This document shows, piece after piece, positions 3,133 to 19,104 of a stretch of DNA of 40,000 nucleotides. Numbering within the stretch: position 1 is the stretch's first letter; every line of letters begins with the position of its first letter. Under the pieces are notes generated by a model. The model was not told the DNA's origin. It did not search any database and saw only the letters and a list, made by a program, of their open reading frames with translations. The stretch covers positions 14,614-54,613 of the forward strand of contig JANQLO010000081.1 in the NCBI GenBank assembly GCA_028280505.1, given 5' to 3'. Made by a program: the position numbers and the translations under genes. This DNA is from Chromatiales bacterium. Its GTDB lineage: Bacteria > Pseudomonadota > Gammaproteobacteria > Chromatiales > Chromatiaceae.

Positions 3133-3136
3133 CGGA

Positions 3137-3322
3137 TTACTCCGTCGATACCGTCAGCGCGCCGGAAGGGCAGGCCGCACAAACGTCACGGATCTGTTGT
3201 TCGCTCGCGCCTTGGGGATCGATTACGAACTCGCCGTTTTCCAGCTTGAACACCTGTGGCAGGCTGTTGACGCACACGCCGGCGTGTTGGCATACGGATT
3301 CATCCCAGTTGACTTTCAACAT
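3137..3322 (-). CDS. Small ferredoxin-like protein (divergent 4Fe-4S mono-cluster type)
   Basis: 61 aa. Cys pattern C-x5-C ... C-x2-C-P (CQHAGVC ... CAACPSG). GAGGAGAG Shine-Dalgarno upstream of the ATG. Immediately downstream of fdsA. Confidence 0.6.
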   Translation of the reverse strand: MLKVNWDESVCQHAGVCVNSLPQVFKLENGEFVIDPQGASEQQIRDVCAACPSGALTVSTE

Positions 3323-3345: not shown

Positions 3346-6090
3346 TCAGGCCGGTTCTACCCGGACCGCGCAGAATTTGAATTCCGGGATCTTGCCGTCA
3401 GGGTCGAGTGCCTCGTTGGTCAGCAGATTGGCGGCCGCCTCGTGATAACAGAACGGCAAGAACACCTGCCCCTTGCGCAGGCCGTTGTCGACCCGTGCGC
3501 GGGCGATGATGTCGCCTCGCCGTGAACGCACTCGAACGGGTTCACCCGGTGCCGCGCCGATGGCGCGGAGCTGGTCCTCGTGCAGTGTTGCCACCGGCGA
3601 CGGCTCTATGGCGTCGAGTACACTCGCGCGCCGCGTCATGCTGCCGGTGTGCCAGTGTTCGAGTTGACGGCCGGTGATCAGGATCAGCGGGTACTCGTCG
3701 TTCGGCAGTTCGTCGGCTTCGCTGAACGTTACCGGTACCAAGAGGGCCTTGCCGTCGGCGCGCGGAAACGCTTCGATGAAGATGACCTCGTCGCCCGGGT
3801 CGCCTTCGTTCTCGCAGGGGTAGGTCACCGCGCTGTCATGTTCCAGGCGCTCCCAGGTGATGCCGGCGATACTGGGCATGGCTTGGCGCATTTCGTCGAA
3901 TACGATGCGTGGTTCGGGATAGTGCCACTCGAGCCCGAGACGACGCGCCATATCGATGATGATATCGAGATCTTGTCGGGCCTCGCCCGGTGGTGTGAGT
4001 GCCTGGCGGCCGAGCTGCACCCGGCGATCGGTATTCGTGAAGGTGCCGGTTTTTTCTGGAAAGGCCGAGGCTGGCAGTATCACGTCGGCGTAGTGTGCGG
4101 TCTCGGTCATGAAGATGTCCTGCACCACCAAATGATCGAGCTTGGCCAACGCGGCGCGCGCATGTTGCAGATTCGGGTCGGACATTGCCGGGTTCTCGCC
4201 CATGATGTACATGCCGTGGATTCGATCGTCGTGGACGGCATGCATGATCTCGACTACGGTTAAACCCGGTTGTGGGTCGAGTGTCTGTCCCCACAGCACT
4301 TCGAACTTTTCGCGAACCTCATCGTTATCGACCCGTTGATAGTCGGGAAAGACCATTGGGATCAAGCCGACATCGGATGCGCCCTGTACGTTGTTCTGGC
4401 CCCGTAGCGGATGCAGACCGGTGCCTGGGCGACCGATCTGCCCGGTGATGAGTGCCAGGTTGATCAGGCAACGAGCATTGTCGGTGCCGTGTATGTGCTG
4501 CGATATGCCCATGCCCCAGAAGATCATCGAGCCCTTCGACGATGCGAACGTGCGTGCGACCTCGTGCAGTGTTTCGGCCGATATGCCACAGATGGCTTCC
4601 ATCGCCTCGGGGGCATAGTCGACCAGATGCGTCTTCAAGGCCGCATAGCCATCGGTACGTTGATCGATGAAGGCTTGATCGACCAGGCCTTGTTCGATGA
4701 CCGAATACATGATCGCGTTCAGCATGGCGACATCGGTGTCGGGCTTGAACTGCAGCACGTAATCCGCGTGGCGCGCGATGTCGGTGAGCCGCGGGTCCAT
4801 GACGATCAAGGTCTTGCCGGCGCGCGCGGCGTTCTTGAAAAAGGTCGCTGCGACCGGATGGTTCTCGGTCGGGTTCGAACCGATGACCACGATGACCTCG
4901 GCCTGGTCGACATCGGCCACCGGGTTGGACACGGCGCCGGAACCGATCATCTGCAACAGCGCGGCGACCGACGAGGCATGACACAGGCGGGTGCAGTGAT
5001 CGACGTTGTTGCTGCCGAATCCGGTGCGCACCAGTTTCTGAAACAAATAGGCCTCTTCGTTCGAGCCCTTGGCCGAACCGAAGCCCGCGAGTGTGCTCGG
5101 GCCTCGTTCGGCGCGGATACGATTCAGCCCGTCGGCGGCACGCGACATGGCCTCTTCCCAGCTGGCCTCGCGGAAGTCGCGCAGTGCATTGTCGCGGTCG
5201 AGATCGAGTTCGGCCCGCTTGGGCGCGTCGTCACGCCGGATCAACGGCTGCAGCAGGCGTTGACGATGACGCACATAGTCGAAGCCATAACGGCCTTTGA
5301 CGCACAGACGGTTGTGATTGGCCGGTCCGTCGCGCCCTTCGACCCAAAGAATCCTGTTGTTACTGACGTGGTAGGTGAGCTGGCAGCCGACACCACAGTA
5401 GGGACAGACCGAATCGATCCGTTTTTCGGCCTCAATCTTCGCGGCATCGCGTGCCGGCATCAATGCCCCGGTCGGGCAGGCCTGCACGCATTCGCCGCAG
5501 GCCACGCAGCTGGATTCACCCATGGGATCGTCGAGATCGAACACGATACGCGCCTTGGCGCCGCGTCCGGCAAATCCGATCACATCGTTCGCCTGGGTCT
5601 CGCGACAGGCACGTAGGCAGCGGGTGCATTGGATGCAGGCGTCCAGGTTCACCGCGATCGCCGGGTGGGATAGATCGGGCCCGGGTTGTCCGCTGGCGGG
5701 AAAACGCGGTGCGCCGACGGCGAGCTTGTCGCTCCAGGCATCGAGTTCGCTGTTCGGCGTATAGTCGGTATCGGCCGCCGTATCGGCGCGTAACAGTTCC
5801 AGCACCAGTCTCTGCGCGTGCCGCGCTCGCTCGTTTTGTGCACTGACCTTCATACCGTCGCCGGGATAGCGGCAGCACGAGGGTGCAAGTACACGCTCGC
5901 CGTCGATTTCGACCATGCAGGCGCGGCAGTTGCCGTCGGCGCGCAGGCCCTCGGTATAGCACAGGTGCGGGATCTCGACGCCATGACGTTGCGCGGCCTG
6001 TAGGATGGTCTCGCCCGGCAGGGCGGCGATTTTGCGGCCGTCGAGTTCGAACGCTATCGGTTGCGGTAGATCTTGCGGTCGTGCAGCCAT
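3346..6090 (-). CDS. fdsA: NAD-dependent formate dehydrogenase, alpha (molybdopterin) subunit
   Basis: 914 aa. N-terminal 2Fe-2S ferredoxin fold (CYTEGLRADGNCRACMVE), 4Fe-4S motifs (CIQCTRCLRAC, CVACGECVQACP, CPYCGVGC), a MopB formate dehydrogenase core with Cys ligand context (VDHCTRLCHASS), and a C-terminal MopB barrel. Uninterrupted ORF, so Cys-type rather than Sec-type. Confidence 0.92.
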   Translation of the reverse strand: MAARPQDLPQPIAFELDGRKIAALPGETILQAAQRHGVEIPHLCYTEGLRADGNCRACMVEIDGERVLAPSCCRYPGDGMKVSAQNERARHAQRLVLELLRADTAADTDYTPNSELDAWSDKLAVGAPRFPASGQPGPDLSHPAIAVNLDACIQCTRCLRACRETQANDVIGFAGRGAKARIVFDLDDPMGESSCVACGECVQACPTGALMPARDAAKIEAEKRIDSVCPYCGVGCQLTYHVSNNRILWVEGRDGPANHNRLCVKGRYGFDYVRHRQRLLQPLIRRDDAPKRAELDLDRDNALRDFREASWEEAMSRAADGLNRIRAERGPSTLAGFGSAKGSNEEAYLFQKLVRTGFGSNNVDHCTRLCHASSVAALLQMIGSGAVSNPVADVDQAEVIVVIGSNPTENHPVAATFFKNAARAGKTLIVMDPRLTDIARHADYVLQFKPDTDVAMLNAIMYSVIEQGLVDQAFIDQRTDGYAALKTHLVDYAPEAMEAICGISAETLHEVARTFASSKGSMIFWGMGISQHIHGTDNARCLINLALITGQIGRPGTGLHPLRGQNNVQGASDVGLIPMVFPDYQRVDNDEVREKFEVLWGQTLDPQPGLTVVEIMHAVHDDRIHGMYIMGENPAMSDPNLQHARAALAKLDHLVVQDIFMTETAHYADVILPASAFPEKTGTFTNTDRRVQLGRQALTPPGEARQDLDIIIDMARRLGLEWHYPEPRIVFDEMRQAMPSIAGITWERLEHDSAVTYPCENEGDPGDEVIFIEAFPRADGKALLVPVTFSEADELPNDEYPLILITGRQLEHWHTGSMTRRASVLDAIEPSPVATLHEDQLRAIGAAPGEPVRVRSRRGDIIARARVDNGLRKGQVFLPFCYHEAAANLLTNEALDPDGKIPEFKFCAVRVEPA

Positions 6091-6093
6091 GGC

Positions 6094-7764
6094 TCAGAAC
6101 TCCTCCGGGAAGTATTTCATGGCGCAGCGCAAAGGGTTGGGCGCGGCCTGGCCCAGGCCGCAGATCGACGCGTCCTCCATGACCTGGCAGAGTTCTTCGA
6201 GCAGTGGCTTGTCCCATGCGTCGTGTGCCATCAGTGTCGCCGCCTTTTCGGTGCCGACCCGGCAGGGCGTGCATTGGCCGCAGGATTCGTGCGCGAAGAA
6301 ACGCATGGCGTTCAGTGCGACGTCACGCACATTGTCACGATCGGACAATACGATCACCGCGGCCGAGCCGATGAAACAGCCGTGGTCGTTCAGGGTATCG
6401 AAGTCGAGCGGCAGATCGGCCAGCGATGCCGGCAGAATGCCGCCCGAGGCACCGCCCGGTAAGTAACCCTTGAGCGTGTGACCGTCGAGTATGCCGCCGC
6501 AGTATTCGTCGATGAGTTCACGCAGGCTGATGCCGGCCGGTGCGATATGCACGCCGGGTTGCTTGACCCGGCCGCTCACCGAGAAGCTGCGCAGCCCCTG
6601 GCGCCCGTTACGTCCGTGCGACAGAAACCAGTCGGCGCCCTTGTCGAGAATCTCGGGTACCCAGTAAAGGGTTTCCATATTGTGTTCGAGTGTCGGTTGG
6701 CCGAACAAACCGCGTTCGGCGATATAAGGCGGTCGCAGGCGGGGCATGCCGCGTTTGCCCTCGATGGATTCGATCATCGCCGACTCTTCGCCGCAGATGT
6801 ACGCGCCGGCGCCGCGTCGCAGTTCGATCGGCGGCAATGCGCAGGGCGGGTTCTGCCGCAGCTTGTCGAGTTCTTCGGTGAGCAGCTCGCGGACGCCGGC
6901 GTACTCGTCACGCAAGTAGATGTAGATGGCGTCGATCCCGACCACGTGTGCCGCGATCAACATGCCCTCGAAAAAGCGGTGCGGATGGCGTTCGAGGAAA
7001 TAACGGTCCTTGAAGGTGCCGGGCTCGCCCTCGTCGATGTTCACCGCCATCAGGCGCGGCCCGGGATAGCCGTGGACGATGCGCCATTTGCGACCGGCCG
7101 GGAAACCGGCGCCGCCGAGTCCGCGCAGGCGGGCGTCTTCGAGTGTCTGGATGACCTCTTCGCGGATCTTGTCTTGATCCTGCGAGAGCAGTTTCCGCAG
7201 CAATTGATATCCGCCGTCGTTGCAATAAGCGTCGAGTCGTTTGGCGTTGCTTGGTGCGTGTGCTTTTCGATCGTCATGCTCGATCGCGTCGCATAGCTTG
7301 CTTGTATTCGCTTTGCCGAGCGCTTGGGTGCCGACGACGCCGACCGGCGCTTGATCACAGCGACCGACACAGGGCACACGCTGAATTCTCACGCCTTCGC
7401 CAAGGGCGTGCTGTAACTCGGCGATCAGGGTTTCCGCGCCGGCCATGGCGCAACTGATGGAGTCGCATACCCGAACAGTCAGGGCGGGTGGCGGGGTTTC
7501 GTCTTCCTTGACGACGTCGAAGTGATGATAAAAGCTGGCAACCTCGTAGACCTCGGTCGGCGCGAGGCGTAGCTCGTGCGCCAGCGCGACCAGCAGATGA
7601 GCGGGCAGATGGCCGAGCGCATCCTGGATGCGATGCAGATATTCGATCAGATGATCACGGCGTGGCTGCTCGTCGAGGTATCGATGCACCTCCTCTAGAT
7701 CGGCATTGAGTGCCGTTCGTCCTTTCTTTTGACCGTTTTTTCGTTTGCGGGCTGTCGCGCTCAA
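6094..7764 (-). CDS. fdsB: NAD-dependent formate dehydrogenase diaphorase subunit: fused NuoE/FdsG-like and NuoF/FdsB-like domains
   Basis: 556 aa. N-terminal thioredoxin-like 2Fe-2S domain (VCDSISCAMAG ... VPCVGRCDQAP), then a NuoF-type NADH/FMN domain (GLGGAGFPAGRKW, ICGEESAMIESIEG) and a 4Fe-4S motif (ESCGQCTPCRVG). Apparent TTG start. Confidence 0.88.
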   Translation of the reverse strand: MSATARKRKNGQKKGRTALNADLEEVHRYLDEQPRRDHLIEYLHRIQDALGHLPAHLLVALAHELRLAPTEVYEVASFYHHFDVVKEDETPPPALTVRVCDSISCAMAGAETLIAELQHALGEGVRIQRVPCVGRCDQAPVGVVGTQALGKANTSKLCDAIEHDDRKAHAPSNAKRLDAYCNDGGYQLLRKLLSQDQDKIREEVIQTLEDARLRGLGGAGFPAGRKWRIVHGYPGPRLMAVNIDEGEPGTFKDRYFLERHPHRFFEGMLIAAHVVGIDAIYIYLRDEYAGVRELLTEELDKLRQNPPCALPPIELRRGAGAYICGEESAMIESIEGKRGMPRLRPPYIAERGLFGQPTLEHNMETLYWVPEILDKGADWFLSHGRNGRQGLRSFSVSGRVKQPGVHIAPAGISLRELIDEYCGGILDGHTLKGYLPGGASGGILPASLADLPLDFDTLNDHGCFIGSAAVIVLSDRDNVRDVALNAMRFFAHESCGQCTPCRVGTEKAATLMAHDAWDKPLLEELCQVMEDASICGLGQAAPNPLRCAMKYFPEEF

Positions 7765-7818
7765 AGGGAAAAACTCCAGTATCTTGGCATCTCGCTTCGT
7801 TGGTATCCGACAATGGGA

Positions 7819-8409
7819 TTATGGACGCCCGGTCTGTCGGGCGGGTATCTTGGCCTTTTGTTCGGCGCGTACCAGTGCCATGCGCAGACTGTCGGCAAGG
7901 GCGTTCGGCGGCAGACCGTGTGGCAGAATCCGCAGCAGCTCGCCCTGGGTGTCGATCAGATACAGGCTGGCGCTGTGATCCATCGTGTAGCGTTCGATCT
8001 CGCCTTTACCGACGAACTGATAGCGCACCCGATAGCGTTCCGCAACGTCGTGCAGTTGCTCCGGCGCGCCGGTCAGTCCGCGTAGGCGAGAATGAAAGAA
8101 GCGCGTGTAGACGCGCAGATGTTCGGGGGTGTCGCGGTCCGGATCGAGCGACACGAACAGCGCATCGACCTTTTCCGCATCTTCGCCAAGGCTGTTGAGG
8201 GCATTACCAATGACCGCCAATGCTGTGGGGCAGACGTCAGGGCAATAGGTGTAGCCAAACGATAACACCACGAGTTGGCCGCGCGAATCGGCGAGGGAGT
8301 AACTCGAACCATCGTCTGCCGTAAGGGTGAAGTCGCCGCCCAGCCCGAATGCTCCGCCGCTTATCGCTGAAACCAACAATGTCATGCCGATTAACTGCCG
8401 ATACTTCAT
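7819..8409 (-). CDS. SCO1/SenC copper chaperone (thioredoxin fold)
   Basis: ORF 7819-8781 trimmed to the internal ATG (comp. 8407-8409, MKYRQLIGMTLLVSAISGGAFG signal/anchor) preceded by GGAGA. Canonical motif FGYTYCPDVCP plus a downstream His (MDHSASLYLID). Confidence 0.85.
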   Translation of the reverse strand: MKYRQLIGMTLLVSAISGGAFGLGGDFTLTADDGSSYSLADSRGQLVVLSFGYTYCPDVCPTALAVIGNALNSLGEDAEKVDALFVSLDPDRDTPEHLRVYTRFFHSRLRGLTGAPEQLHDVAERYRVRYQFVGKGEIERYTMDHSASLYLIDTQGELLRILPHGLPPNALADSLRMALVRAEQKAKIPARQTGRP

Positions 8410-8860
8410 ACCTGATCTCCCATGCTCGGATCGGTGTTGGGTCCGAAACAGCCTGGTGAGTTGATGCAGCTTTGATGCCAGGACCTTTTCCGATGCAGCG
8501 ATGGGGAGGTCATCGCGTTGGGTGTGACACCTGTAACGCAAAACACTGGGCAGTTGTAACTGCGACGACACACCTTTATGGCGAGGTTTTTTACGACAGG
8601 TGGATGGTGATGGCGTCGGGTAGTCCACACGGTTGGTATCGACATTGCATGAATTCTGAAGCTGCTGTGCGAGCGGGTGCGTTGATAGCGTTAGGTTGTT
8701 ATGGTTTACGGTCAATGCCGAGCACAGAGTCTTGCAAGCTAGCCAGGCCGTTTTGGGCTTAGGCTTGAGTCCTTTGGTCAAAGCTTGTCGTCACACAATG
8801 GGGCAGGACCCGATGCATCGATACATGACAGCGCTGCGACAGCGAAGAGTGGACGTTTAG

Positions 8861-9265
8861 ATGCGCTCCTCGCTCATGTATTTCAGTTCTCGCCGACGTG
8901 TGTGGATTCACCTGGCGCTCATCTTCGCGTTGCTTATGCAGGGCGCGATTCCTTTGCAATCGCATACCGTTTTCGCAAAGAACGGTTTCGGCCATCTCGT
9001 TGTCATATGTACCTGGAACGGTGCGCGTGTTGAATGGATCGATCTTCCCGGCTCAGATGATGCATCGTCCGTTGAACGATTGTCACCCGCGTGTCTTTTC
9101 TCGCAGCTTCTGGCATCTGCCGGATTATCCGTTGCACCAATCTCTCCCGCGGCCTTGTTTGTGCCGTTCGGTGCGCTCGACGAGTATCGGGTTGCATATT
9201 TTGCCGTTGCCTCACTCGAGGCCTACCTGATACGCGCGCCTCCTGACAGTATCGACCGTGTCTGA
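8861..9265 (+). CDS. DUF2946-like small secreted/membrane protein (copper-uptake associated family)
   Basis: 134 aa. N-terminal hydrophobic segment WIHLALIFALLMQGAIPL, two spaced Cys contexts (VVICTWNG, SPACLFS) and a C-terminal RAPP motif, as I recall for DUF2946. Sits directly upstream of a PCuAC gene, the usual partner. Family assignment is from memory only. Confidence 0.5.
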   Translation: MRSSLMYFSSRRRVWIHLALIFALLMQGAIPLQSHTVFAKNGFGHLVVICTWNGARVEWIDLPGSDDASSVERLSPACLFSQLLASAGLSVAPISPAALFVPFGALDEYRVAYFAVASLEAYLIRAPPDSIDRV

Positions 9266-9331
9266 TTAATACATGGATCGCACAGCGTCTGTTTCGTGCG
9301 CTGTGCAGACAAATCTGTTTGGAGAGTTTCA

Positions 9332-10189
9332 ATGAGTACTCTGAGTTTTCGTTGCGGCATGGCCTTGCTTGCCATGATGTTTGCCATTCCTGTGTCCGCC
9401 ATTCCGGCAGCCGACGAGATTCTCGTTGCCAATCCGTATGCGCGTGCCGTTCCTCCGATGATGGAGAACAGCGCGATGTTTGTAACGCTGAAGAATACCG
9501 GCGCGAGCGATCGGGCCCTTGTGAGCGCCAGCAGCCGTGCTGCCGAGGTCGTAGAGCTGCATACACACGTCAAAGACGGTGATGTCATGCGGATGCGGCA
9601 GATCGATAAGATCGAGATCAAAACCGGTCAGTCGGCGGTTCTCGAGCCGGGTGGTTTGCACGTGATGCTGATCGGGCTCAAGCGACCCTTGATGCCCGGT
9701 AGTACCGTACAGGTCGATTTGCACTTCGATGATGGCAGCAGCAAAGCGGTCGTTGCGCCGATCAAGTCGATTGCCGGCATGCATGCCGGCAGTGGTCATG
9801 CGATGCAGGGTAGGGGGAAATCCTCGGAGCCCATGTCCCCGGTATTCATCAATCTCACCACCGATGACAATTGGCGTGCAGGGATGGCGCTGCACTGGGC
9901 GCGTATGGCGCTCAAACGGGGCCATGAGGTGACTATCTGGCTGAACGTCGAGGCGGTGCGTATCGCCGTCAAGCGCATCGGCCATCCCATACATGCCATG
10001 CAGAACAAGTCGGCCCAAGAAATGCTGCAAGCCGTTGCGGCAGATGGTGCTACCGTACTGGTCTGCCCCGGTTGCCTGAAGCGTGCGGGATTCAATCGTG
10101 GAGACCTGATTGATGCGGTGTCCACGGGAAGTCCGGACACGGTCATGCCGGCCATGTTCGACTCGAAAACCAAGGTGATCAGCTGGTAA
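9332..10189 (+). CDS. Periplasmic copper chaperone PCu(A)C (DUF461) fused to a C-terminal DsrE/DsrF-like domain
   Basis: ORF 9296-10189 trimmed to ATG 9332 (GGAGAG at 9321-9326). Signal peptide MSTLSFRCGMALLAMMFAIPVSA. PCuAC H(M)x10Mx21HxM-type motif (ELHTHVKDGDVMRMRQ ... GGLHVMLIGL). C-terminal ~120 aa resemble DsrE/TusD/YchN (PVFINLTTDD..., VLVCPGCLKRAGF, KVISW). Confidence 0.8.
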   Translation: MSTLSFRCGMALLAMMFAIPVSAIPAADEILVANPYARAVPPMMENSAMFVTLKNTGASDRALVSASSRAAEVVELHTHVKDGDVMRMRQIDKIEIKTGQSAVLEPGGLHVMLIGLKRPLMPGSTVQVDLHFDDGSSKAVVAPIKSIAGMHAGSGHAMQGRGKSSEPMSPVFINLTTDDNWRAGMALHWARMALKRGHEVTIWLNVEAVRIAVKRIGHPIHAMQNKSAQEMLQAVAADGATVLVCPGCLKRAGFNRGDLIDAVSTGSPDTVMPAMFDSKTKVISW

Positions 10190-10475
10190 GCCCAGCCCGT
10201 CGAGCGGGTAGCCGCGGCTTGCGGTGACCGCTCGTTCGGGCAGCGGTACCTACTTGTCCATAGGGCTGGCTGTCTCTGCAGCTGGCGATGCTGGGCACAT
10301 AATACTGGCTTGAAAACCGGTTTGTGCGTCAGTGTTCTCGTTTGCGCCTATTTCACGGAAGTGTGACATAGGTTGCGCAACACGGATGTCGTCTGTAACC
10401 GGGACGGCACACCGAGGGTTGACGGAGACCCCGAAAGCCCAGCGTTCTTGCGGCCGTACAGGCAATTCAATCGAT

Positions 10476-10491
10476 TGGCACTTTCATTGCA
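10476..10491 (+). promoter_or_regulatory. Sigma54 (-24/-12) promoter upstream of mtoX
   Basis: TGGCAC-TTTCA-TTGCA is an exact match to TGGCAC-N5-TTGCW, 128 nt upstream of the mtoX ATG. An imperfect inverted repeat TTGCGCCTAT...ATAGGTTGCGCAA lies at 10342-10380, at enhancer-site distance. Confidence 0.6.
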
Positions 10492-10618
10492 AAGCAGTGA
10501 TTTAGCTGCTCGCAAAAAAAGCAGCAAAAGTGCGGTTTGCATCAGGCCTGAGCGGTTGAGGCTGCAGTCCAGCACGCCACTATCAGTAACAGAGCCAGAA
10601 ATTTTGGAGGAACACTGA

Positions 10619-12001
10619 ATGCGTTCTGAAACACTCAAGAAATGGCGCCGGACAGTCTTGGCAATCGGTCTTGCCAGCTCCGCTGCGATGGCCGCGATGG
10701 TCACGCCGGCTTTCGCCGACGAGACTTGCATGTCGCCTTACATGGCCAAGATCGTTGGCCAAGAAGACTTCGTGTATGTGTGGACGCTTGGCATCGAGGG
10801 TGTCGGTGATGGCCAGGACAAGCTGGTCACGGTCGACGTCAACCCGAAGTCGAAGAACTATGGCCAAGTCATCCATGCCTTGTCGGTCGGTGGTCGTAAC
10901 GAAGCCCATCATTCGGGTCTGACCGATGATCGCCGTTATCTCTGGGCCGGCGGTTTGGATACCAACAAGCTGTGGATCTTCGATGTGCATACCGATCCGG
11001 CCAAGCCGCGGCTGAAAAAGGTTGTCACCGACTTCGTCGCGAAAAGTGGCGGCGTGGTGGGTCCGCATACAACCTATGCACTGCCCGGCAGAATGATGAT
11101 TACCGGACTGTCCAACAACAAGGATCACGGCGGTCGTACCGCGCTGGTCGAGTACACCAACGAGGGCGAGTATGTCGCCACGTACTGGATGCCGACCGAT
11201 GAGAATCTTCAGGGTGCCGTGAAGAGCGGCAAGTATGCCGATGGGTATGGTTATGACGTCCGCGTACTGCCACGCCGTAACATGATGGTGACTTCGTCAT
11301 TCACCGGCTGGTCGAACTACATGATGGATTTCGGCAAGATGCTGCAGGACAAGGAAGCCATGAAACGCTTCGGCAATACCGTCGTGATCTGGGATTTGCA
11401 CCAGCGCAAGCCGAAGAAGGTGCTGGACGTTCCCGGTGCACCGCTGGAGATTCGTTGTGCATGGCAGCCAACCAATAACTGGTGCCTGACGACGACCGCC
11501 CTGACGTCAAAGGTCTGGTTGATCTACGAAGACGACGCGGGCGAATGGCAGGCCAAAGACGTCGCGGATATCGGTGATCCGTCCAAGGTGCCGCTGCCGG
11601 TCGCGTTCTCGATCGCACAGGACGATTCCGGCTTTCTGCTCAACACCTTCATGGACGGCAAGGTCCGTTATTTCGATCTCAGCGATCCGCACAAGCCGGT
11701 GCAGAAGTACGAGAAAGTGATCGGCAAGCAGGTGAATATGATCTCCGGCAGTTGGGACTGGAAGCGCCAGTACTTCACCAGTTCGCTGCTTGCCAACTGG
11801 GACAAGAAAGGTGGTGACGGCGAGCAGTTCTTCCGCGCCTACGATTGGGATGGCGAGAAGCTGACCAAGCGTTTCGAGATCGACTTCATTGAAGCGAAGC
11901 TCGGACGCGCTCACCAGATGCGGTTCGGTGCCTATGCGCTGTATGCCAAACACAGGCCGGCGCAGCAGCCCGAAGGTTCGGCCCTGGCATCTGCGGAATA
12001 A
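10619..12001 (+). CDS. mtoX: Methanethiol oxidase, selenium-binding-protein (SBP56) family, periplasmic
   Basis: 460 aa, GGAGG at 10606-10610. Export leader MRSETLKKWRRTVLAIGLASSAAMAAMVTPAFA (Tat-like RR). SBP56-type sequence throughout (GYDVRVLP, VVIWDL, FFRAYDWDG...). Followed by SCO1-like/MauG genes, as recalled for described mtoX loci. Confidence 0.82.
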   Translation: MRSETLKKWRRTVLAIGLASSAAMAAMVTPAFADETCMSPYMAKIVGQEDFVYVWTLGIEGVGDGQDKLVTVDVNPKSKNYGQVIHALSVGGRNEAHHSGLTDDRRYLWAGGLDTNKLWIFDVHTDPAKPRLKKVVTDFVAKSGGVVGPHTTYALPGRMMITGLSNNKDHGGRTALVEYTNEGEYVATYWMPTDENLQGAVKSGKYADGYGYDVRVLPRRNMMVTSSFTGWSNYMMDFGKMLQDKEAMKRFGNTVVIWDLHQRKPKKVLDVPGAPLEIRCAWQPTNNWCLTTTALTSKVWLIYEDDAGEWQAKDVADIGDPSKVPLPVAFSIAQDDSGFLLNTFMDGKVRYFDLSDPHKPVQKYEKVIGKQVNMISGSWDWKRQYFTSSLLANWDKKGGDGEQFFRAYDWDGEKLTKRFEIDFIEAKLGRAHQMRFGAYALYAKHRPAQQPEGSALASAE

Positions 12002-12011
12002 CCTCCGTGTA

Positions 12012-12090
12012 CCCCTATGCCGACGTGGTTCGGCGGCATAGGGGCTTCCTCTACGGTGATTTGCCCCCAGCATGGCGGGGGCGCTTTTTT
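12012..12090 (+). terminator. Tandem hairpins after mtoX; the second is a Rho-independent terminator
   Basis: Hairpin 1: CCCCTATGCCG (12012-12022) pairs with CGGCATAGGGG (12034-12044), with no T tract. Hairpin 2: GCCCCC (12063-12068) pairs with GGGGGC (12077-12082), followed by GC TTTTTT (12085-12090). Confidence 0.65.
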
Positions 12091-12114
12091 CCGCATTCTT
12101 GAGGGAGAACGATC

Positions 12115-14067
12115 ATGTTATCGATGATGAGCCGGGGATTTTTGTCGTCGTTGTTGTCGATAGTCGTATTTGCCGGCACGCCGTTTGCCGAGACGAGCGA
12201 CAAGCCGCTCGTACTAGCCCCTTTTTATACCGAAGCAGAGTTTGATCCACCCCCGCCGGGTAGCTATGCGTTGCCAATGCTCGGCTACGCTTCCGACGGC
12301 GCCATACTCAATACACTGGGGCGAAGCGAGAGTCTTCACGAGCACTTTGGCGATGGCAAGGTTGTCCTTCTGAGTTTCATTTTCAGTACCTGTACCGACA
12401 TCAACGGCTGCCCGCTGGCGACCGCCGTGATGTATCGCATTCAACAGAAACTCAAAGATGATCCGGCAATCGGCGAACGTTTTCGCATGATCAGCTTGAG
12501 TTTCGATCCGGCCTACGACACGCCCGAGGTCATGGCGCTCTATGGATCGGACTTCAGCCAACAGGGCGATTGGCGTTTTCTGACCACGGCATCGTGGGAC
12601 GATCTTCAGCCCATTCTCGACAGCTATGGCCAGTCGGTGATCCAGGATATTGATGAAAACGGTAAGCCGCTACCGTCGTTCTCGCACATTCTCCGCGTGT
12701 TTCTGATCGATCCCGATAAACGTATCCGCAACATCTACAGCGTCTCTTTTCTCAATCCCGATCTCATCCTCAACGACGCCAGGACGGTGTTGATGGCGGA
12801 TGAGCCGGGTACCGATAGGCAAGCAGGGTTGCAAAAGGTATCGACCTTGTCCAAACCCGGTGACTATAAGGAAGGCTACGAATCCGATGATTATCGTACA
12901 CGCAGCCATGCCGTGGAGTTGCGCACCGGGCAAAAGGCCGACTTGCTGACCTTTATCGAGAATCCGCCGCTGGGTTTGCCGGCAGTCCCTCAACCCGAAA
13001 ACAATCCGGCGACACCGGCTAAGCTCGAACTGGGGCGCAAACTGTTTTTCGATCGGCGATTGTCACTCAACGACACCTTCTCCTGTGCGATGTGCCATGT
13101 GCCCGAGCAAGGCTTCACCAATAACGAATTGGCGATGGCGGTCGGTTTCGAAGGTCGGAGTGTGCGTCGCAACTCGTCGACGATATATAACACCGCCTAT
13201 TTTACCCGCTTGTTCCACGATGGCCGTGAAGAGTCATTGGAACAACAAGTGTGGGGGCCGTTTCTCGCACCCAATGAGATGGCGAACCCCTCGGTGGGTG
13301 CGGTGATCAGCAAGATTCGGCGTATGCCCGATTATGCGGGTCTGTTCGAGGCGGCCTTCGACGGTCGCGGCGTGAGCATGGAAACCGTCGGTATGGCCTT
13401 GGCCGTTTATCAGCGTGCGCTGGTATCGGGGAATTCGCCATTCGATCGTTGGCATTACGGCGGCGAGCAGGCCGCGCTTTCCGAATCGGCCAAACGCGGT
13501 TTCGAAATTTTTACCGGTAAGGCGAATTGTTCTTCCTGCCATACCGTAGGCAAGGGCTACGCATTGTTCACGGACGACCGATTGCACAATACCGGTATGG
13601 GTTATCGCGAGTCCATGGGTATCAAACCCGAGAAGCAGCGTGTGTTGCTCGCACCCGGCGTGTATGTAGAGGTCGACCGGGAAACCATCGAGTCGGTGGG
13701 CCTTCCTCGTCCACCCGATCTCGGTCTGTATGAAATCACCCAAAATCCGCATGACCGTTGGAAATACCGTACGCCGACACTGCGCAATGTCGCGCTGACC
13801 GCACCCTATATGCACAACGGTTCGCTCAGCACCCTGCGTGACGTGGTCGAGTTCTACAATAACGGTGGTGTGCCAAACGAATTGCTCGATCCACGCGTTC
13901 GGCCTCTGGAACTCAGTGATGAGGAAATCGACGACCTGGTGGTCTTCATGCGAAGCCTCACGGGTGATAATGTCGATACCATCGTCGCCGATGCCTTTGC
14001 TGCACCGGTTGGCGATATCACCATCGACGACCCGAATTGGGCACACGAGGCGACGGCCTATGATTAG
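12115..14067 (+). CDS. Fusion protein: SCO1/SenC-like thioredoxin-fold domain plus di-haem cytochrome c peroxidase/MauG domain
   Basis: 650 aa, GAGGGAG at 12101-12107, signal peptide. N-terminal domain: VVLLSFIFSTCTDINGCPLA (C-x5-C-P rather than CxxxCP), FRMISLSFDP, and His in SFSHILRVFLID. C-terminal domain: two haem-c motifs CAMCH and CSSCH plus TPTLRNVALTAPYMHNGS, typical of CCP/MauG. Confidence 0.85.
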   Translation: MLSMMSRGFLSSLLSIVVFAGTPFAETSDKPLVLAPFYTEAEFDPPPPGSYALPMLGYASDGAILNTLGRSESLHEHFGDGKVVLLSFIFSTCTDINGCPLATAVMYRIQQKLKDDPAIGERFRMISLSFDPAYDTPEVMALYGSDFSQQGDWRFLTTASWDDLQPILDSYGQSVIQDIDENGKPLPSFSHILRVFLIDPDKRIRNIYSVSFLNPDLILNDARTVLMADEPGTDRQAGLQKVSTLSKPGDYKEGYESDDYRTRSHAVELRTGQKADLLTFIENPPLGLPAVPQPENNPATPAKLELGRKLFFDRRLSLNDTFSCAMCHVPEQGFTNNELAMAVGFEGRSVRRNSSTIYNTAYFTRLFHDGREESLEQQVWGPFLAPNEMANPSVGAVISKIRRMPDYAGLFEAAFDGRGVSMETVGMALAVYQRALVSGNSPFDRWHYGGEQAALSESAKRGFEIFTGKANCSSCHTVGKGYALFTDDRLHNTGMGYRESMGIKPEKQRVLLAPGVYVEVDRETIESVGLPRPPDLGLYEITQNPHDRWKYRTPTLRNVALTAPYMHNGSLSTLRDVVEFYNNGGVPNELLDPRVRPLELSDEEIDDLVVFMRSLTGDNVDTIVADAFAAPVGDITIDDPNWAHEATAYD

Positions 14068-14566
14068 AATGCTGCCTGCGTTGTTACTCGGCATGACCTT
14101 GGCTTTTCCCGTTCAGGCGGCGCGCGTGATGAAGGCCTATGAGCAGCCCAGGCAGGCACCGGCATTCGCGCTACCGGCGGTCGATGGCGGTTCGCGGCAA
14201 TTGACGGATTACCGGGGACGTTACCTGTTGGTGAATTTTTGGGCGGTCTGGTGCAGCCCCTGTGTCAAGGAAATGCCGTCGATGCAACAGGCCTACGATA
14301 CCCTCAAGGACGACGGTTTGGCGATGGTCGCGATTCATGTCGGTCCGAGCGTCGAGGGCGCGAAGAAGTTTGCCGATGATCTCGGATTGAGCTTCGATAT
14401 CGTGGTCGACGAACAGATGGCCCTTGCCAAATGGCAGGTACAGGCCTTGCCGACGACCTTCCTGGTCGATCGAGAGGGGCGCATTGTCGCCGAGGCGCTT
14501 GGTGATCGGGATTGGGCGGGCGAGAGCTTGCTCGATCAATTAAAGGGTTTTCTCGAGACACGCTGA
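14060..14566 (+). CDS. TlpA/ResA-like periplasmic thiol:disulfide oxidoreductase
   Basis: ORF 13838-14566 trimmed to ATG 14060, which overlaps the upstream stop by 8 nt. Signal peptide MIRMLPALLLGMTLAFPVQA. Redoxin motif LLVNFWAVWCSPCVKEMP. Confidence 0.85.
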   Translation: MIRMLPALLLGMTLAFPVQAARVMKAYEQPRQAPAFALPAVDGGSRQLTDYRGRYLLVNFWAVWCSPCVKEMPSMQQAYDTLKDDGLAMVAIHVGPSVEGAKKFADDLGLSFDIVVDEQMALAKWQVQALPTTFLVDREGRIVAEALGDRDWAGESLLDQLKGFLETR

Positions 14567-14610
14567 TTCAGGCGGCCATACCCGACGGAAGAATCCCGCT
14601 CACGCATCGA

Positions 14611-14979
14611 TCAGTCGCGCATCGACCTCGGCTCGAGTCGCTGCGCGAAGTGTGCGCCATCGACCTCGCTCAGCCGGAGCAGCCAACCGTCGGCATACGG
14701 CTGATCGTTGACCAGGGTCGGCTCCATGATGCAGGTTTCATTGTGCGCGATTACCGTGGCGCTCAATGGTGCGATGAGGTCGGAGACGGTTTTCAGCGAC
14801 TCGATGCTAGCGCAACGTTCACCACCGACGAGATGTTGGCCCACGGCTGGTAGTCCAGCTTTTCGATGGTGCCCAGTGCTTGCTGTGCGTGTTCGGGTGA
14901 TACCCGAAATCCACTGGCCACCTTCTGGCATGACCCAGACATGATGCGGGCTGTAACGGCGGTCGTCAGGCACCGACAT
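14611..14979 (-). CDS. GcvH-like lipoyl-carrier protein (orphan; internal 14-codon segment appears out of frame)
   Basis: 122 aa. YSPHHVWV...GIT at the N-terminus, lipoyl-lysine context CASIESLKTVSDLIAPLS, and NDQPYADGWLLRL. The conserved EHAQQALGTIEKLD segment is encoded only in the +1 frame between about 14853 and 14897 (see finding). Confidence 0.7.
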   Translation of the reverse strand: MSVPDDRRYSPHHVWVMPEGGQWISGITRTRTASTGHHRKAGLPAVGQHLVGGERCASIESLKTVSDLIAPLSATVIAHNETCIMEPTLVNDQPYADGWLLRLSEVDGAHFAQRLEPRSMRD

Positions 14980-14995
14980 GGGTTTTCCTCAAGTA

Positions 14996-15027
14996 GAAAA
15001 AGGCCATCCGCGAACTGCGGGATGGCG
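14996..15027 (-). terminator. Rho-independent terminator after the FadL-like gene
   Basis: Minus strand reads GCCATCCCGC-AGTTC-GCGGATGGC (9-bp stem with one bulge) followed by CTTTTTCT. Lies between the FadL-like stop (15035) and the gcvH-like start (14979). Confidence 0.65.
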
Positions 15028-15034
15028 AGGTTGT

Positions 15035-16258
15035 TTAATTGAAGCGCCAGGTGAGCGCCGCGCCGACCTGCCAGGCGCCGGCATCCGCTTTTGTCGGTCC
15101 GATGGTCTCATCCCGCTCGAAGGCACGCGCAACGTGTGCGTCGATCTGTAGGCCGGGTTGAACTTCCCAGCCCAGGCCGGCGGTTAACTGGTTTTCCCAG
15201 ATAACCTGAGTATTGGTGGCTTGAACGTATTGCACCAATGTCGGATTGAGCGGCACCGTTGCACCCCCGAGAAAGATCGAAGTGGCATCGCCCAATCTCG
15301 ACCCCAGGTTGCGCTTGATCGGGCTTTCAGCGTGCGAGAACCCAATGCGCCACTTGAATGGTCCCCGGGTGTATTGGGCGCCGACGGCGTATACGGTCTG
15401 GTCGTCGTAGACATCCTCGTAGGTTTCCGCGTCACTCCAGTTCTTCCAAATCATATCGGCGGCCAGCAGCAGTTGACCGTTCATCAGGCTTTCGTTCGCG
15501 ATGCCGAATGCCAGTTCCTGCGGTTGTTCCACCGTCACGTCATGGAAGCCGTTCGCCGCGAATTGCACCACGCGCTCGTATTCGATCGACAGCGGACTTC
15601 GGTAGTAGGCACCGACGGTCGTTGCGCCGAGCGCATAAGTTGCGCCGAGCGTCCCGCGAATGCCGAAGTTGCTGGTCGAACTGGTGATGCTTTGCAGGCC
15701 GAGTTGTCCGAGTCCGTAGGCGATGGTTGCGGCGGCGCCGATCGAGAGATTGTCGTTGATCTTGTGTCCGACACCGGCGTTGGCACCGAACACCAGGATC
15801 TCGGCCAGCGGGTCCAGGCTGCCCGGCGTACCGCGAAAATCCGTGCCGACGCCCGATACGACGGTAAGGCCCAGGCCCAGTGTGGTTGAATCACCCAGCG
15901 ACTGGCTAACCGCGACGTTCGGTACCAGCCAGGGCCCGGCCTCGGAGTCGGCCGACCAGGCGGTGCCGGTCGCTGATCCGTCGTGAGTGTTTTCGACGTC
16001 GACGTTGTAGTAGGTCGCGCCGAACATGAACTGCGTGCCTTTGAACTGGGTCAGCGTGGCCGGATTGCCGAACACCGTCGAGCCGACGTCTTGCGGGCGT
16101 GCGATACCGACACCACCCATACCGCCGGCGGCAGGCATCATGGTCAAGTTGAGGTCGGTGCCATAGTTGGCGGCGTGCGCCTGTGCGAAGACGAGGCCGA
16201 TACCGGCAGCCAGGGCAAGGTAAGTGAACCGTTTATTCGTTTGTTTCATGGCGTTCAT
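15035..16258 (-). CDS. Outer-membrane transport protein, OmpP1/FadL/TodX family
   Basis: 407 aa. Signal peptide ...GLVFAQAHA, the family's N-terminal hatch motif (GGMGGVGIARPQDVGSTVFGNPATL), alternating beta-strand pattern, and a C-terminal aromatic end (LTWRFN). Confidence 0.8.
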   Translation of the reverse strand: MNAMKQTNKRFTYLALAAGIGLVFAQAHAANYGTDLNLTMMPAAGGMGGVGIARPQDVGSTVFGNPATLTQFKGTQFMFGATYYNVDVENTHDGSATGTAWSADSEAGPWLVPNVAVSQSLGDSTTLGLGLTVVSGVGTDFRGTPGSLDPLAEILVFGANAGVGHKINDNLSIGAAATIAYGLGQLGLQSITSSTSNFGIRGTLGATYALGATTVGAYYRSPLSIEYERVVQFAANGFHDVTVEQPQELAFGIANESLMNGQLLLAADMIWKNWSDAETYEDVYDDQTVYAVGAQYTRGPFKWRIGFSHAESPIKRNLGSRLGDATSIFLGGATVPLNPTLVQYVQATNTQVIWENQLTAGLGWEVQPGLQIDAHVARAFERDETIGPTKADAGAWQVGAALTWRFN

Positions 16259-16267
16259 CTCTGCGCT

Positions 16268-16813
16268 CTAGGCGGCATCGGTTGTCAGTCTGTGCAGTTC
16301 GCGTCCTGCGACCCGGGCGGTACCGCTAACGGATTGCGCACGAGTCAGAATGTCCAGTACCGGGCAGTGGTTCTCGACGGTATCGATCAGCTTACGCAGG
16401 CTTTCGTCATCGGCGGGGCTCTCGATTTCGGTTTCGAAGCTGATGCGTTTGTAACCCGGTGGGATCGACGCATCCATGCCGAACAGGCCCTTGAGATCGA
16501 GGTATCCGCGTGCGTTGACTTTGACCGAGGTGAGTTCGATATCCATCACTGCGGCATAGGCGGAGTACATGATCTCCTGACAGGTGCCCAGCGCGACCAG
16601 GACCAGCTCGACGGGATTGGCCGCGCTGTCCTGACCACCCAACTCGGGGGGTTCATCGACGATCATCGGTTCGAAACCACGGACCTTTGCCGAACAGCGT
16701 ACGTCTTCCTCCCATTCGGTTTCGGCACGGAATACGACGTTGGATAGATTGGGGTTGTCTTGAATGCCCCCAATGGTTTTCATCAGAGCCTCTTTGACGC
16801 TGGCTTGCGACAT
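16268..16813 (-). CDS. OsmC/Ohr-family protein (putative peroxiredoxin)
   Basis: 181 aa. PELGGQDSAANPVELVLVALGTCQ and ENHCPV motifs carry the two conserved Cys of OsmC-like proteins. Ends 9 nt before the FadL-like start. Confidence 0.82.
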   Translation of the reverse strand: MSQASVKEALMKTIGGIQDNPNLSNVVFRAETEWEEDVRCSAKVRGFEPMIVDEPPELGGQDSAANPVELVLVALGTCQEIMYSAYAAVMDIELTSVKVNARGYLDLKGLFGMDASIPPGYKRISFETEIESPADDESLRKLIDTVENHCPVLDILTRAQSVSGTARVAGRELHRLTTDAA

Positions 16814-16939
16814 GCTCAGTCCTCCTTTAGAACGAGTTGGTCGTTATGGAAGGCGGTCTCTGCGAACCGCTCTTAGGAGAACCTTAGGGATAGGAATGCG
16901 CGGTTAAAATTCGCGTGAATACGGTGCTGTCACGTAGAA

Positions 16940-17131
16940 CTACGCGGTATCGTCGCGTGAGTCGAGTAAGTGTTTGGTGCTTTCCGTACGATAGTTTTGC
17001 ATCAGGACTGCGAGGGCTGTGACGGATTCGACTTGCATCTTGCGCAGAATATTCGCGCGATGGGTTTCGACTACCATGGTGGCCGCCATCGACGTGATGG
17101 CGGTCGCAAGGCCGGTTAGGGTGATGTCCAT
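16940..17131 (-). CDS. 63-aa ORF resembling the C-terminal two-thirds of a LuxR/GerE HTH domain (possible remnant)
   Basis: LATAITSMAATMVVETHRANILRKMQVESVTALAVLM resembles IAxxLxISxxTVExHRxNIxxKLxVxS. The first helix (LTxRExEVL) and any receiver domain are absent. Starts 8 nt after the fhcC stop. Confidence 0.3.
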   Translation of the reverse strand: MDITLTGLATAITSMAATMVVETHRANILRKMQVESVTALAVLMQNYRTESTKHLLDSRDDTA

Positions 17132-17139
17132 TGTCGGGG

Positions 17140-17958
17140 TCAGTCGAGCACGAGGATTTCACCGCGTCCATCGCAGGCGAGATCGCCGACGTAGCGTTGT
17201 ACCGTGGCCCGGTCGTCGGCGGCGATGACCGGTCCGCCGGTCCGCCGTTGGATGTCGTTCAGCAACAATCGAAGGAAAGGCAGTTGCTGTCGCCCGTTGT
17301 CGACGATGGTACTGCCCAGTGCCGGCGGAAGGCGGTTCAAGAGCAATGTGCCGCGCCGCATGCCGTGGCCGGCGAGTTCGCCTACCCGACCGCGTGCGCA
17401 AAGCGTACCGGCGATCATGCAGTGACCGAGAAGATCGCCGCAGTCGCCGTCGATGACCATCAGGCCTCGGCGCATGCGTTCGCCGGCGCGCTCGCCCGCA
17501 TTGCCCCGGATATGAATGAGCCCACCCTGTTGACCGCGGCGTTCACCGGCGGCTGGCGCGCCGGTCCGGGCCCCGACATTGCCGTCGATCGAGAGACGAC
17601 CGCCGTGCATGCCGCTGCCTGTGCTGTCGCCGGCATTACCGCGGATCTCGATGATGCCACCACGCATGGCACGACCCGTATAGTGGCCGGCGTCACCGTC
17701 GACGATGATGCGGCCGTTTTCGAGTCCGGTACCGATCTGATCGAGTCCGCCGTCTACAGGCAGCAATAAGAGTTCGTCACTAGGACCGTCTTGGATCTCG
17801 ACCTCGAACAATTCCGCCAGGGGTAGCGGGTGATTGCCCAGGTGTAAAGGTATCCGGCGGATGTCGTCCGGGTTCATGGCGGCCAACCGGCCTGGCAGGA
17901 TGCCGCTGAAGTCGATGCGCTGACGTGTCGACCGGACCTGGCGCAAGATTACGCTCAT
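17140..17958 (-). CDS. fhcC: Formyltransferase/hydrolase complex subunit C (FwdC/FmdC homologue)
   Basis: ORF 17140-18447 trimmed to the ATG at comp. 17956-17958, which forms an ATGA overlap with the fhcD stop. Repeated beta-helix G-x-x-G units (GDAGHYTGRAMRGGIIEIRGNAGDSTGSGMHGGRLSIDGNVG...). Confidence 0.88.
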   Translation of the reverse strand: MSVILRQVRSTRQRIDFSGILPGRLAAMNPDDIRRIPLHLGNHPLPLAELFEVEIQDGPSDELLLLPVDGGLDQIGTGLENGRIIVDGDAGHYTGRAMRGGIIEIRGNAGDSTGSGMHGGRLSIDGNVGARTGAPAAGERRGQQGGLIHIRGNAGERAGERMRRGLMVIDGDCGDLLGHCMIAGTLCARGRVGELAGHGMRRGTLLLNRLPPALGSTIVDNGRQQLPFLRLLLNDIQRRTGGPVIAADDRATVQRYVGDLACDGRGEILVLD

Positions 17959-18860: not shown

Positions 18861-19088
18861 GTTCGTCTTGTCCCGGTTCAGTTCAGTACTTACATCCGCC
18901 AGGCAACGCAATTCCTGTGCCGCTGTCCGGATGCCGATGAACGGATCGAAGAATCCGTCGTGATGACCAATCTTTTTTCGAAGGGTTGTCATGGGTGTGC
19001 TTAATCGCGGTGACACAGTGACACGCGACAGGTGCACGCCGCCGTCCCGCGGCGCCGACTATCCCGGCGACACCGCCGTTTGCGAAGC

Positions 19089-19104
19089 AGGCACGGCGTT
19101 TGCA
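19089..19104 (+). promoter_or_regulatory. Second sigma54-like -24/-12 motif, just upstream of mptG (weak call)
   Basis: AGGCAC-GGCGT-TTGCA matches GGCAC-N5-TTGCA. However, the -12 element is only ~13 nt from ATG 19117, which would imply a leaderless mRNA or a downstream start (GTG 19156). Confidence 0.3.

Follow-up and report, generated by a model that had tools for sequence, protein, structure and literature searches.

The 40,000-nucleotide window analysed here, a stretch of contig JANQLO010000081.1 from a Chromatiales bacterium, carries mtoX, the gene of the periplasmic copper-dependent methanethiol oxidase (MTO), together with a set of genes for periplasmic copper handling and maturation. 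The locus is an already described gene cluster for making and maturing MTO, joined by a lineage-specific copper-chaperone cassette of two genes, a DUF2946-like open reading frame (ORF) and a gene for a PCuAC chaperone fused to a DsrE-fold domain (Table 1). This overall reading, a known gammaproteobacterial MTO maturation cluster with an inserted copper-supply cassette beside mtoX, is given a probability of roughly 0.6. A first-pass annotation of the same DNA had proposed a six-component line of copper acquisition, reduction and insertion dedicated to one enzyme; the set found in the window is a modest variant of the published cluster, not a new six-part system.

The mtoX product, a protein of 460 aa, is a true MtoX. 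It scored 764.5 bits against the NCBIfam equivalog NF052453 ‘methanethiol oxidase’ (cut-off 650) and keeps four His residues (H97, H98, H150 and H432) that 18 homologues share without exception and that align with 2ECE. These are the same conserved His ligands as those of known MtoX proteins from the Methylophaga, Hyphomicrobium and Ruegeria clusters, the proposed copper ligands being His89/90/140/412 in Hyphomicrobium numbering (PMC5739008). A signal peptide read from the sequence comprises residues 1-33, with cleavage between TPAFA and DETCMSPY, and the predicted N-terminus DETC, also shared with the known proteins, agrees with the sequenced mature N-terminus DETXNSPF of the Hyphomicrobium enzyme (PMC5739008). 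The gene is preceded by a strong Shine-Dalgarno sequence (GGAGGA) and has genes for periplasmic copper and redox maturation on both sides (Pfam, NCBIfam). All of the genes and motifs named in the first-pass annotation were located where it had placed them (Pfam, NCBIfam, ORF list), and searches with hidden Markov models (HMMs) recovered the families it had named, DUF2946 at a score just below threshold.

Table 1. Features of the mtoX locus, with positions in the window and the basis of each assignment
Feature	Position	Strand	Basis
Stand-alone SCO1/SenC copper chaperone, divergent from mtoX	7819..8409	-	PF02630, 147 bits
DUF2946-like ORF, probable CruR-type leader, 134 aa	8861..9265	+	PF11162, 21.9 bits (below the gathering score of 23.7)
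Exported PCuAC copper chaperone fused to DsrE-fold CxxC domain	9332..10189 (alternative start 9296)	+	PF04314 and PF02635
Conserved motifs 5' of the mtoX promoter, GTGTGACA..TGCGCAAC..TGTAAC-N5-ACGGCACAC	10367..10412	+	Invariant columns
Sigma-54 type -24/-12 promoter TGGCACTTTCATTGCA	10476..10491	+	128 nt 5' of the mtoX ATG
mtoX, predicted periplasmic Cu-dependent methanethiol oxidase, SBP56 family	10619..12001	+	NF052453, His set, 2ECE homology
Two post-mtoX hairpins, the second a likely intrinsic terminator/attenuator	12012..12091	+	Fold, T tract
SCO1-like/di-haem (MauG/MbnH-like) peroxidase fusion, 650 aa, exported	12115..14067	+	PF02630 and PF03150
TlpA/ResA-like periplasmic thioredoxin, WCSPC	14060..14566	+	PF00578, 87.5 bits; PF08534, 69 bits

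Clusters of mtoX with SCO1/senC and mauG genes have been described from Hyphomicrobium sp. VS, Ruegeria pomeroyi and many other bacteria, with SCO1 and mauG fused in Methylophaga, and both copper insertion and a MauG-made Trp cofactor have been proposed for MTO (Eyice et al. 2017, PMC5739008). In Methylophaga thiooxydans the clusters consist of mtoX, a sco1/mauG fusion and a TlpA-like gene, all coding for proteins with predicted export, and expression of the fusion genes rises on dimethyl sulfide (DMS) (Kröber & Schäfer 2019, PMC6548844). Preprints from 2025 repeat the mtoX-SCO1-mauG picture for symbionts. The window has the gene order of M. thiooxydans, again with all products exported, and the downstream half of the finding is already published, since these papers describe mtoX, SCO1, mauG and tlpA. 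The statement that the extended set had not been described as a unit therefore holds for the cassette only: PCuAC, DUF2946 and DsrE are unmentioned in PMC5739008, PMC6548844 and the 2025 symbiont preprints. Unlike the published mto clusters, the window has an extra divergent SCO1 gene, a sigma-54 promoter, and the cassette of CruR-like leader and PCuAC-DsrE gene; it does not have downstream pdo/sqr/sulP genes, and lies between formate dehydrogenase genes and genes of tetrahydromethanopterin (H4MPT)-linked formaldehyde oxidation.

The conservation of this neighbourhood was surveyed with one genome per species, giving 80 mtoX loci whose six-frame ORFs were searched with the proteins of the window; a PCuAC HMM built from 120 homologues was also run on them. 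Adequate flank, defined as at least 3 kb upstream and at least 4.5 kb downstream of mtoX, was available for 46 of the 80. The SCO1/di-haem fusion lies near mtoX in 41 of these 46 loci, a stand-alone SCO1 in 27 (22 downstream, five upstream and divergent) and a TlpA-like gene in 12, with all three together in 11. A PCuAC, DsrE or DUF2946-like gene was near mtoX in 0 of the 46, and no homologue of DUF2946 or PCuAC was found near mtoX in any of the 80 species-level loci. Hence mtoX, the fusion, the stand-alone SCO1 and TlpA are co-conserved across genera, while co-conservation fails for DUF2946 and PCuAC. That pair stands beside mtoX only in the window and in locus L007, a TARA scaffold with 92% nucleotide identity to the window over 16.5 kb, in which all six genes are present. 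The next relatives (L008, L009 and L010, with MtoX identity of approximately 82%) have as their core a divergent SCO1 next to mtoX-fusion-tlpA and share with the window the outer neighbours NAD-formate dehydrogenase, GcvH-like, OsmC-like and fhcC/ftr; their SCO1-mtoX gap measures only 335-380 bp and contains no DUF2946 or PCuAC gene.

These distributions bear directly on the idea that SCO1, DUF2946, PCuAC, SCO1/MauG, TlpA and MtoX act as one dedicated MTO copper acquisition, reduction and insertion line. All six are exported proteins of copper or thiol-redox families encoded within 6.7 kb around mtoX, and L007 keeps the arrangement. The idea is nonetheless very unlikely, given that PCuAC and DUF2946 are missing from the surveyed mtoX neighbourhoods and from the nearest syntenic relatives, that the cassette is found elsewhere without mtoX, that mtoX retains its own promoter 3' of the cassette and that the literature describes the DUF2946 family as a regulatory leader.

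Alignment with the relatives shows where the cassette entered. Their complete SCO1-mtoX intergenic region aligns at approximately 10260-10618 of the window, to the right of the cassette, and an insert of about 1.85 kb carrying the DUF2946-like leader and the PCuAC-DsrE gene lies between the SCO1 start and this ancestral region. The same two-gene cassette occurs in L001, L005 and L006 among unrelated genes and without mtoX, an ORF of about 130 aa resembling the leader preceding the PCuAC-DsrE fusion in each. Because it is absent near other mtoX genes and present elsewhere without mtoX, the cassette is an independent module gained in the lineage of the window and L007, an add-on outside the conserved system. 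A search for repeats at the edges of the insert gave nothing beyond short matches of the kind expected by chance, and hence no hint of a mobile element; positions 8410-8860 resemble neither the other cassette loci nor the relatives at the nucleotide level.

Among 80 metagenome loci encoding the nearest PCuAC relatives, mtoX was found in none (39 have adequate flank), while a SCO1 gene lies within 1 kb of the PCuAC relative in 31 of the 39 loci with adequate flank. The main rival to a role in MTO maturation draws on this pattern: the cassette would serve periplasmic copper homeostasis in general (cytochrome oxidase or copper stress, for instance), would be a chance neighbour of mtoX and would have no part in the maturation of MTO. 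It occurs in unrelated contexts, its PCuAC relatives usually pair with SCO1 and in none of the loci were seen with mtoX, its acquisition was a single event and the mtoX promoter is separate from it. On the other hand, the insertion is placed exactly between the SCO1 gene and mtoX and reproduces the canonical PCuAC-SCO1 adjacency, its position has been retained across 8% nucleotide divergence and no terminator-like hairpin parts it from mtoX; a chance neighbour is accordingly judged rather unlikely. By bringing back the usual PCuAC-SCO1 adjacency, the cassette plausibly raises the supply of copper to MTO in the lineage of the window and L007.

The transcription signals of mtoX were absent from the first-pass annotation as regards its separate sigma-54 promoter. 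The element TGGCACTTTCATTGCA is the sole zero-mismatch sigma-54 match within the 40-kb window, and a sigma-54 element recurs approximately 140 nt 5' of mtoX in L007-L010, L055, L072 and L073, the clade with a divergent SCO1. Of 82 regions upstream of mtoX, eight contain it (background, 0.004 per region). As the element belongs to the ancestral intergenic region to the right of the insert, the mtoX promoter is independent of the cassette. The motif columns upstream of it are invariant over six loci from different genera, and these motifs are candidate activator-binding sites. Downstream of mtoX, a first hairpin of 11 bp (12012-12044) is followed by a second, G+C hairpin (12062-12083) and a T tract, the folding z-score of the region being -3.1. 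This is the double hairpin with terminator that had been noted directly after mtoX. L008 and L009 possess a terminator-like hairpin of different sequence at the same position 3' of mtoX, and such hairpins were identified in 21 of 68 loci in the sense orientation compared with three of 68 in antisense. Its recurrence in relatives backs the suggestion that mtoX may be expressed at a high level and the accessory genes at a low one. An Rfam search of positions 7500-17500 at E<=1 gave no match, so the long intergenic regions contain no known riboswitch or small RNA.

The first gene of the cassette is best understood through Bp2923 (CruR), an upstream ORF of Bordetella pertussis from the DUF2946 family that responds to copper (Roy et al. 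2022, PMC9426467). Ribosome arrest at its C-terminal RAPP keeps the operon on, and copper, sensed by a CXXC motif 45 (+/- 1-2) residues upstream of RAPP, relieves the arrest and leads to Rho termination; homologues of CruR head operons encoding PCuAC, Sco and other copper proteins (PMC9426467). The ORF in the window is likewise small, exported (it has an N-terminal hydrophobic export signal) and at the head of a copper-related operon, with a semi-conserved upstream Cys (in VVICT) and a C-terminal RAPP. This RAPP occupies residues 125-128 of 134 (nt 9233-9244), six residues before the stop, and is found in all nine homologues. Residues 78-81 read CLFS where CruR has CXXC; the same CLFS is found in four homologues, and FLFS or LLFS in four others. 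From this position to RAPP the spacing is exactly 43 residues in all nine homologues (45 +/- 2 in the CruR family) and the intervening sequence is divergent. Because RAPP and the fixed spacing are kept despite that divergence, the ORF has the character of an arrest peptide rather than of a folded domain. In every case seen it is the first gene, directly 5' of the PCuAC-fusion gene.

It differs from CruR in having CxxS in place of CXXC (F/LxxS in related leaders), in a Pfam score just below threshold, in a shorter 3' intergenic region (66 nt compared with 162 nt) and in the gene that follows, which encodes a chaperone fusion here and a TonB-dependent transporter at CruR. The RNA of the leader-to-PCuAC intergenic region folds no better than shuffled sequence (z = -0.5), and this region is not conserved across homologues. 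The nearest PCuAC relatives that lack DsrE (L091-L093, L095; P0134, P0138) have long His-rich repeats of HHGK type and a C-terminal LTXXQ (CpxP/Spy-like) domain. Genes for PCuAC-LTXXQ proteins (L091-L093, L095) also follow RAPP leaders, and those leaders are without Cys at the CXXC position, reading FLFS or LLFS.

The DUF2946-like ORF is thus probably a CruR-type arrest leader of a branch without CXXC, a regulator and not a copper carrier, as judged by the regulatory-leader hallmarks known from CruR (PMC9426467). If the ORF instead encoded a stable copper-binding protein, periplasmic or anchored in the membrane, that donates metal to PCuAC, this would account for the export signal and for conserved Cys and His residues, and with the copper-sensing CXXC missing the published CruR mechanism is not applicable unchanged. 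Such a protein is unlikely all the same, as it would leave unaccounted for the RAPP and the exact spacing in homologues that diverge so widely in between, the homologues that have no Cys at the motif and the invariable position of the ORF immediately 5' of the chaperone gene.

The identity of the second gene product as a PCuAC chaperone stands, and the C-terminal DsrE-like domain had been overlooked. The PCuAC domain spans residues ~28-150 (PF04314, 129 bits; cut-off 29.4), and its Cu(I) motif H77-x10-M88-x21-H110-x-M112 is intact by regular-expression search, with residues invariant in 12 fusion homologues. A His/Met-rich linker (residues 150-166) leads to the DsrE-like domain at residues 168-285 (nt 9833-10186; PF02635, 36 bits, cut-off 22.7), which holds an invariant CxxC pair, VC245PGC248. 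A structure model of residues 170-285 (predicted local distance difference test, pLDDT, of ~80) matches YchN (1jx7, target-normalised TM-score 0.84), 3mc3 (0.82) and DsrEFH (2hy5), and archaeal DsrE-like structures are among the matches. The model also matches PCuAC structures; the PCuAC half has a pLDDT of 40-65 and was used for fold assignment only. By sequence, the DsrE domain gave no match in the PDB, its structural matches coming from the fold search alone.

Fusions of PCuAC and DsrE are rare, with about 12 clusters containing both domains in a collection of 5.8 billion proteins. An exhaustive HMMER search for the DsrE-like CxxC domain returned approximately 365 cluster representatives, most of them 135-165 aa long with N-terminal signal-like sequences and a near-invariant VCPxC. 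Its fusion partners comprise PCuAC (at least five representatives), NosL, NosL plus PCuAC, DUF305, CHRD and Met/His-rich N-termini. Proteins of intermediate length (184-237 aa) showed no recognisable additional Pfam domain, the neighbourhoods of two stand-alone members contained no copper or sulfur genes, and an HMM of the family identified no further members among 170 collected loci. A full-text literature search yielded no paper linking DsrE with PCuAC or NosL among the matches listed; the single listed paper in which ‘dsre’ occurs deals with mitochondrial chaperones and is taken as a spurious match. As the fusion partners are copper proteins, the evidence points to a copper-related role of the DsrE-like CxxC domain, for which Cu(I) binding, Cu(II) reduction and thiol maintenance are candidate chemistries. 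The wider proposal, that this is an unrecognised periplasmic DsrE-fold CxxC family in copper trafficking, accompanied here by a CruR leader without CXXC and recruited to supply copper to MTO, is put forward tentatively and with less than even odds.

The fold itself suggests a different function, since DsrE and YchN belong to a sulfur-transfer family and MTO releases H2S: the domain could take up sulfide or persulfide that MTO sets free in the periplasm, and so shield Cu(I) sites or feed the sulfur into oxidation pathways. The window also has a GcvH-like protein and a second DsrE-family gene. However, the subfamily is marked by a CxxC pair, where DsrE has a single active Cys; the domain is fused to copper proteins (PCuAC, NosL, DUF305, Met/His-rich segments), in loci without mtoX as well, and a sulfur-handling role is considered quite improbable. 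The second DsrE-family ORF (31531-32112, + strand) lies at the end of the H4MPT block; it scored 50 bits on PF02635 and is unrelated to the CxxC subfamily, whose HMM gives it only 17.6 bits.

Three genes make up the maturation set that accompanies mtoX across genera. The stand-alone SCO1 has an N-terminal hydrophobic anchor, the motif YCPDVCP and a distal conserved His in MDHS, as seen in its translation, and its upstream divergent position is kept in L007-L010, L013, L015, L028, L055, L072 and L083. A distinct subfamily of mtoX-linked stand-alone SCO1 proteins, as opposed to PCuAC-linked ones, was considered, and the scores (medians of 154 and 132 bits, respectively) overlap too far to set the two groups apart. 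The TlpA-like protein has the signal sequence MIRMLPALLLGMTLAFPVQA and falls below the NCBIfam cut-offs for both ResA (117 vs 170 bits) and TlpA (79 vs 230 bits). Its ATG at 14060 precedes the stop codon of the fusion gene (14065-14067), giving the 8-nt overlap noted in the first pass; the same overlap is present in L007 and L009, and from this arrangement tlpA is read as translationally coupled to the fusion gene.

The fusion protein combines a SCO1-like domain, which scores 55 bits on its Pfam model, with a di-haem domain. Its first domain has C93-x5-C99 (CTDINGCP), not the CxxxC of SCO1, and this pair is invariant in the 62 mtoX-linked fusions, in which His191 of the same domain is also kept. 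Two CxxCH motifs, CAMCH and CSSCH, are invariant or nearly so in the same 62 proteins. In peroxidases and MauG, the Trp of the motif FWDGR stands between the two haems; the fusions read FHDGR, with His368 invariant in all 62. Tyr581 aligns with the Met haem ligand of MacA (EFYN vs KIMG) and with a Tyr of MbnH, a position presumably providing the sixth ligand of the second haem, and Tyr is found there in 61 of the 62 fusions, the 62nd being gapped. MauG is the biogenesis enzyme of tryptophan tryptophylquinone (TTQ). Matches in the PDB were 6e1c (MbnH, full length, the best at 146 bits), MauG (~98 bits) and MacA. The family of mtoX-linked fusions (62 homologues, L007-L090) is nearer to MbnH (6e1c) than to MauG.

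The two CxxCH motifs and the Tyr at the peroxidase Met-ligand position are thus features in common with MauG and MbnH. Unlike either, the enzyme of the window is fused to a SCO1-like domain, has His in place of the inter-haem Trp and misses both NCBIfam cut-offs (MauG equivalog TIGR03791, 211.5 vs 443.85 bits; MbnH model TIGR04039, 244.4 vs 362.85 bits). MbnH, a di-haem MauG-like enzyme, converts a Trp of the copper-binding protein MbnP to a kynurenine that serves as copper ligand (PMC11951088). By analogy, a Trp at the copper site of MTO could conceivably be oxidised in the manner of MbnH, an idea just as unproven as that of a TTQ. That MtoX has a cofactor or ligand derived from Trp has been proposed and is likewise unproven.

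The PcuC/PCuAC-ScoI-TlpA pathway of Bradyrhizobium, which assembles the CuA site of cytochrome oxidase with CoxB as target, is among the closest known systems. The window encodes comparable parts, all periplasmic: a PCuAC with intact motif and His/Met-rich extension, a SCO1 with CxxxC and His, and a TlpA-like reductase. Here, by contrast, MTO takes the place of CoxB as the presumed target, one of the SCO1 domains has C-x5-C and is joined to a di-haem enzyme, and the PCuAC carries a DsrE-fold CxxC domain. In the proposed scheme, mtoX would be transcribed from its own sigma-54 promoter, and the hairpin terminator would let only a fraction of transcripts continue into the maturation genes, leaving mtoX in excess over them. 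Pre-MtoX would be exported with a cleavable signal peptide and would receive copper in the periplasm from the SCO1 domain or domains, the cysteines of which TlpA would keep reduced. The leader would control expression of the chaperone gene after the start of transcription rather than carry copper. PCuAC may hand Cu(I) on to the SCO1 proteins encoded beside it, in the way that PcuC supplies ScoI when cytochrome oxidase is assembled, and the His/Met linker and DsrE-fold CxxC domain may capture, reduce or hold copper. The putative His/Tyr-ligated di-haem domain, using peroxide, would oxidise a residue of MtoX.

Several points weigh against this account of the locus. Each of the mechanistic steps is drawn by analogy from homologues. 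The adjacency of cassette and mtoX reflects one evolutionary event, common to the window and L007, and with a single event functional linkage is inseparable from chance placement. The leader is without the CXXC that CruR needs for its copper response, some homologues having no Cys there, which makes copper control uncertain. A gene for a sigma-54 activator was looked for and none was identified within the window. The stretch from the PCuAC-DsrE gene to mtoX showed no hairpin resembling a terminator, so read-through from the cassette into mtoX is possible. The nature of any MauG-dependent modification of MtoX is unproven in the literature, and MTO is missing from the list in a 2025 review of protein-derived cofactors.

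An island of C1-oxidation genes encloses the mtoX cluster (3346-7764 and 17140-31600). On one side are the alpha and beta subunits of an NAD-dependent formate dehydrogenase, and on the other the H4MPT formaldehyde-oxidation and cofactor genes fhcC, ftr, mtdB-like, mch, fae, ATP-grasp, CitG-like and PTPS. Between the cluster and the latter block, on the - strand, a trio of genes at 14611-16813 encodes a GcvH-like lipoyl carrier with the ESLK lysine present, a FadL/TodX-type outer-membrane channel and an OsmC-like peroxiredoxin; it is co-conserved with the mtoX cluster in L007-L010, in Sedimenticola selenatireducens (L015) and in L028. Speculatively, these three could serve in sulfur transfer, in uptake of hydrophobic substrate and in removal of H2O2 made by MTO.

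At 16949-17073 the window is without approximately 2.1 kb that are present in L007 (16333-18539), where they hold the gene for a PAS-HisKA sensor kinase and the larger part of one for a LuxR-type response regulator. This kinase/regulator pair lies between the OsmC-like gene and fhcC in L007-L010; either a conserved two-component system has been deleted from the window or the assemblies differ. At 1306-3322 (- strand) are genes for a 436-aa pyridine-nucleotide-disulfide oxidoreductase, a 170-aa protein without a family match and a 61-aa Fer4_19 ferredoxin; the trio recurs by the mtoX/formate dehydrogenase region in L007, L008 and L009, and its genes could be candidates for a missing step in the metabolism of DMS or methanethiol. 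Further away (35017-37253, + strand) are two adjacent diguanylate cyclases, one with a PAS domain and the other with an N-terminal protoglobin (globin-coupled sensor) domain.

MTO is a key enzyme of the organosulfur cycle in marine and sediment environments, and its copper loading and maturation are still unproven. Together, the genes of the C1 island would take the methyl carbon of methanethiol to CO2. Side findings of moderate interest, each of which offers a lead, are a branch of CruR arrest peptides that retains RAPP and the 43-residue spacing without the copper-sensing CXXC, and a fusion family marked by an invariant C-x5-C, an MbnH-like di-haem domain, a Tyr ligand and a His for the inter-haem Trp. 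A third is the DsrE-fold CxxC family tied to copper chaperones which, if its link to copper is true, adds a component to bacterial periplasmic copper trafficking. For MTO itself, the separation of the maturation set (fusion, SCO1 and TlpA) from the optional PCuAC-DsrE add-on guides the priority of gene deletions.

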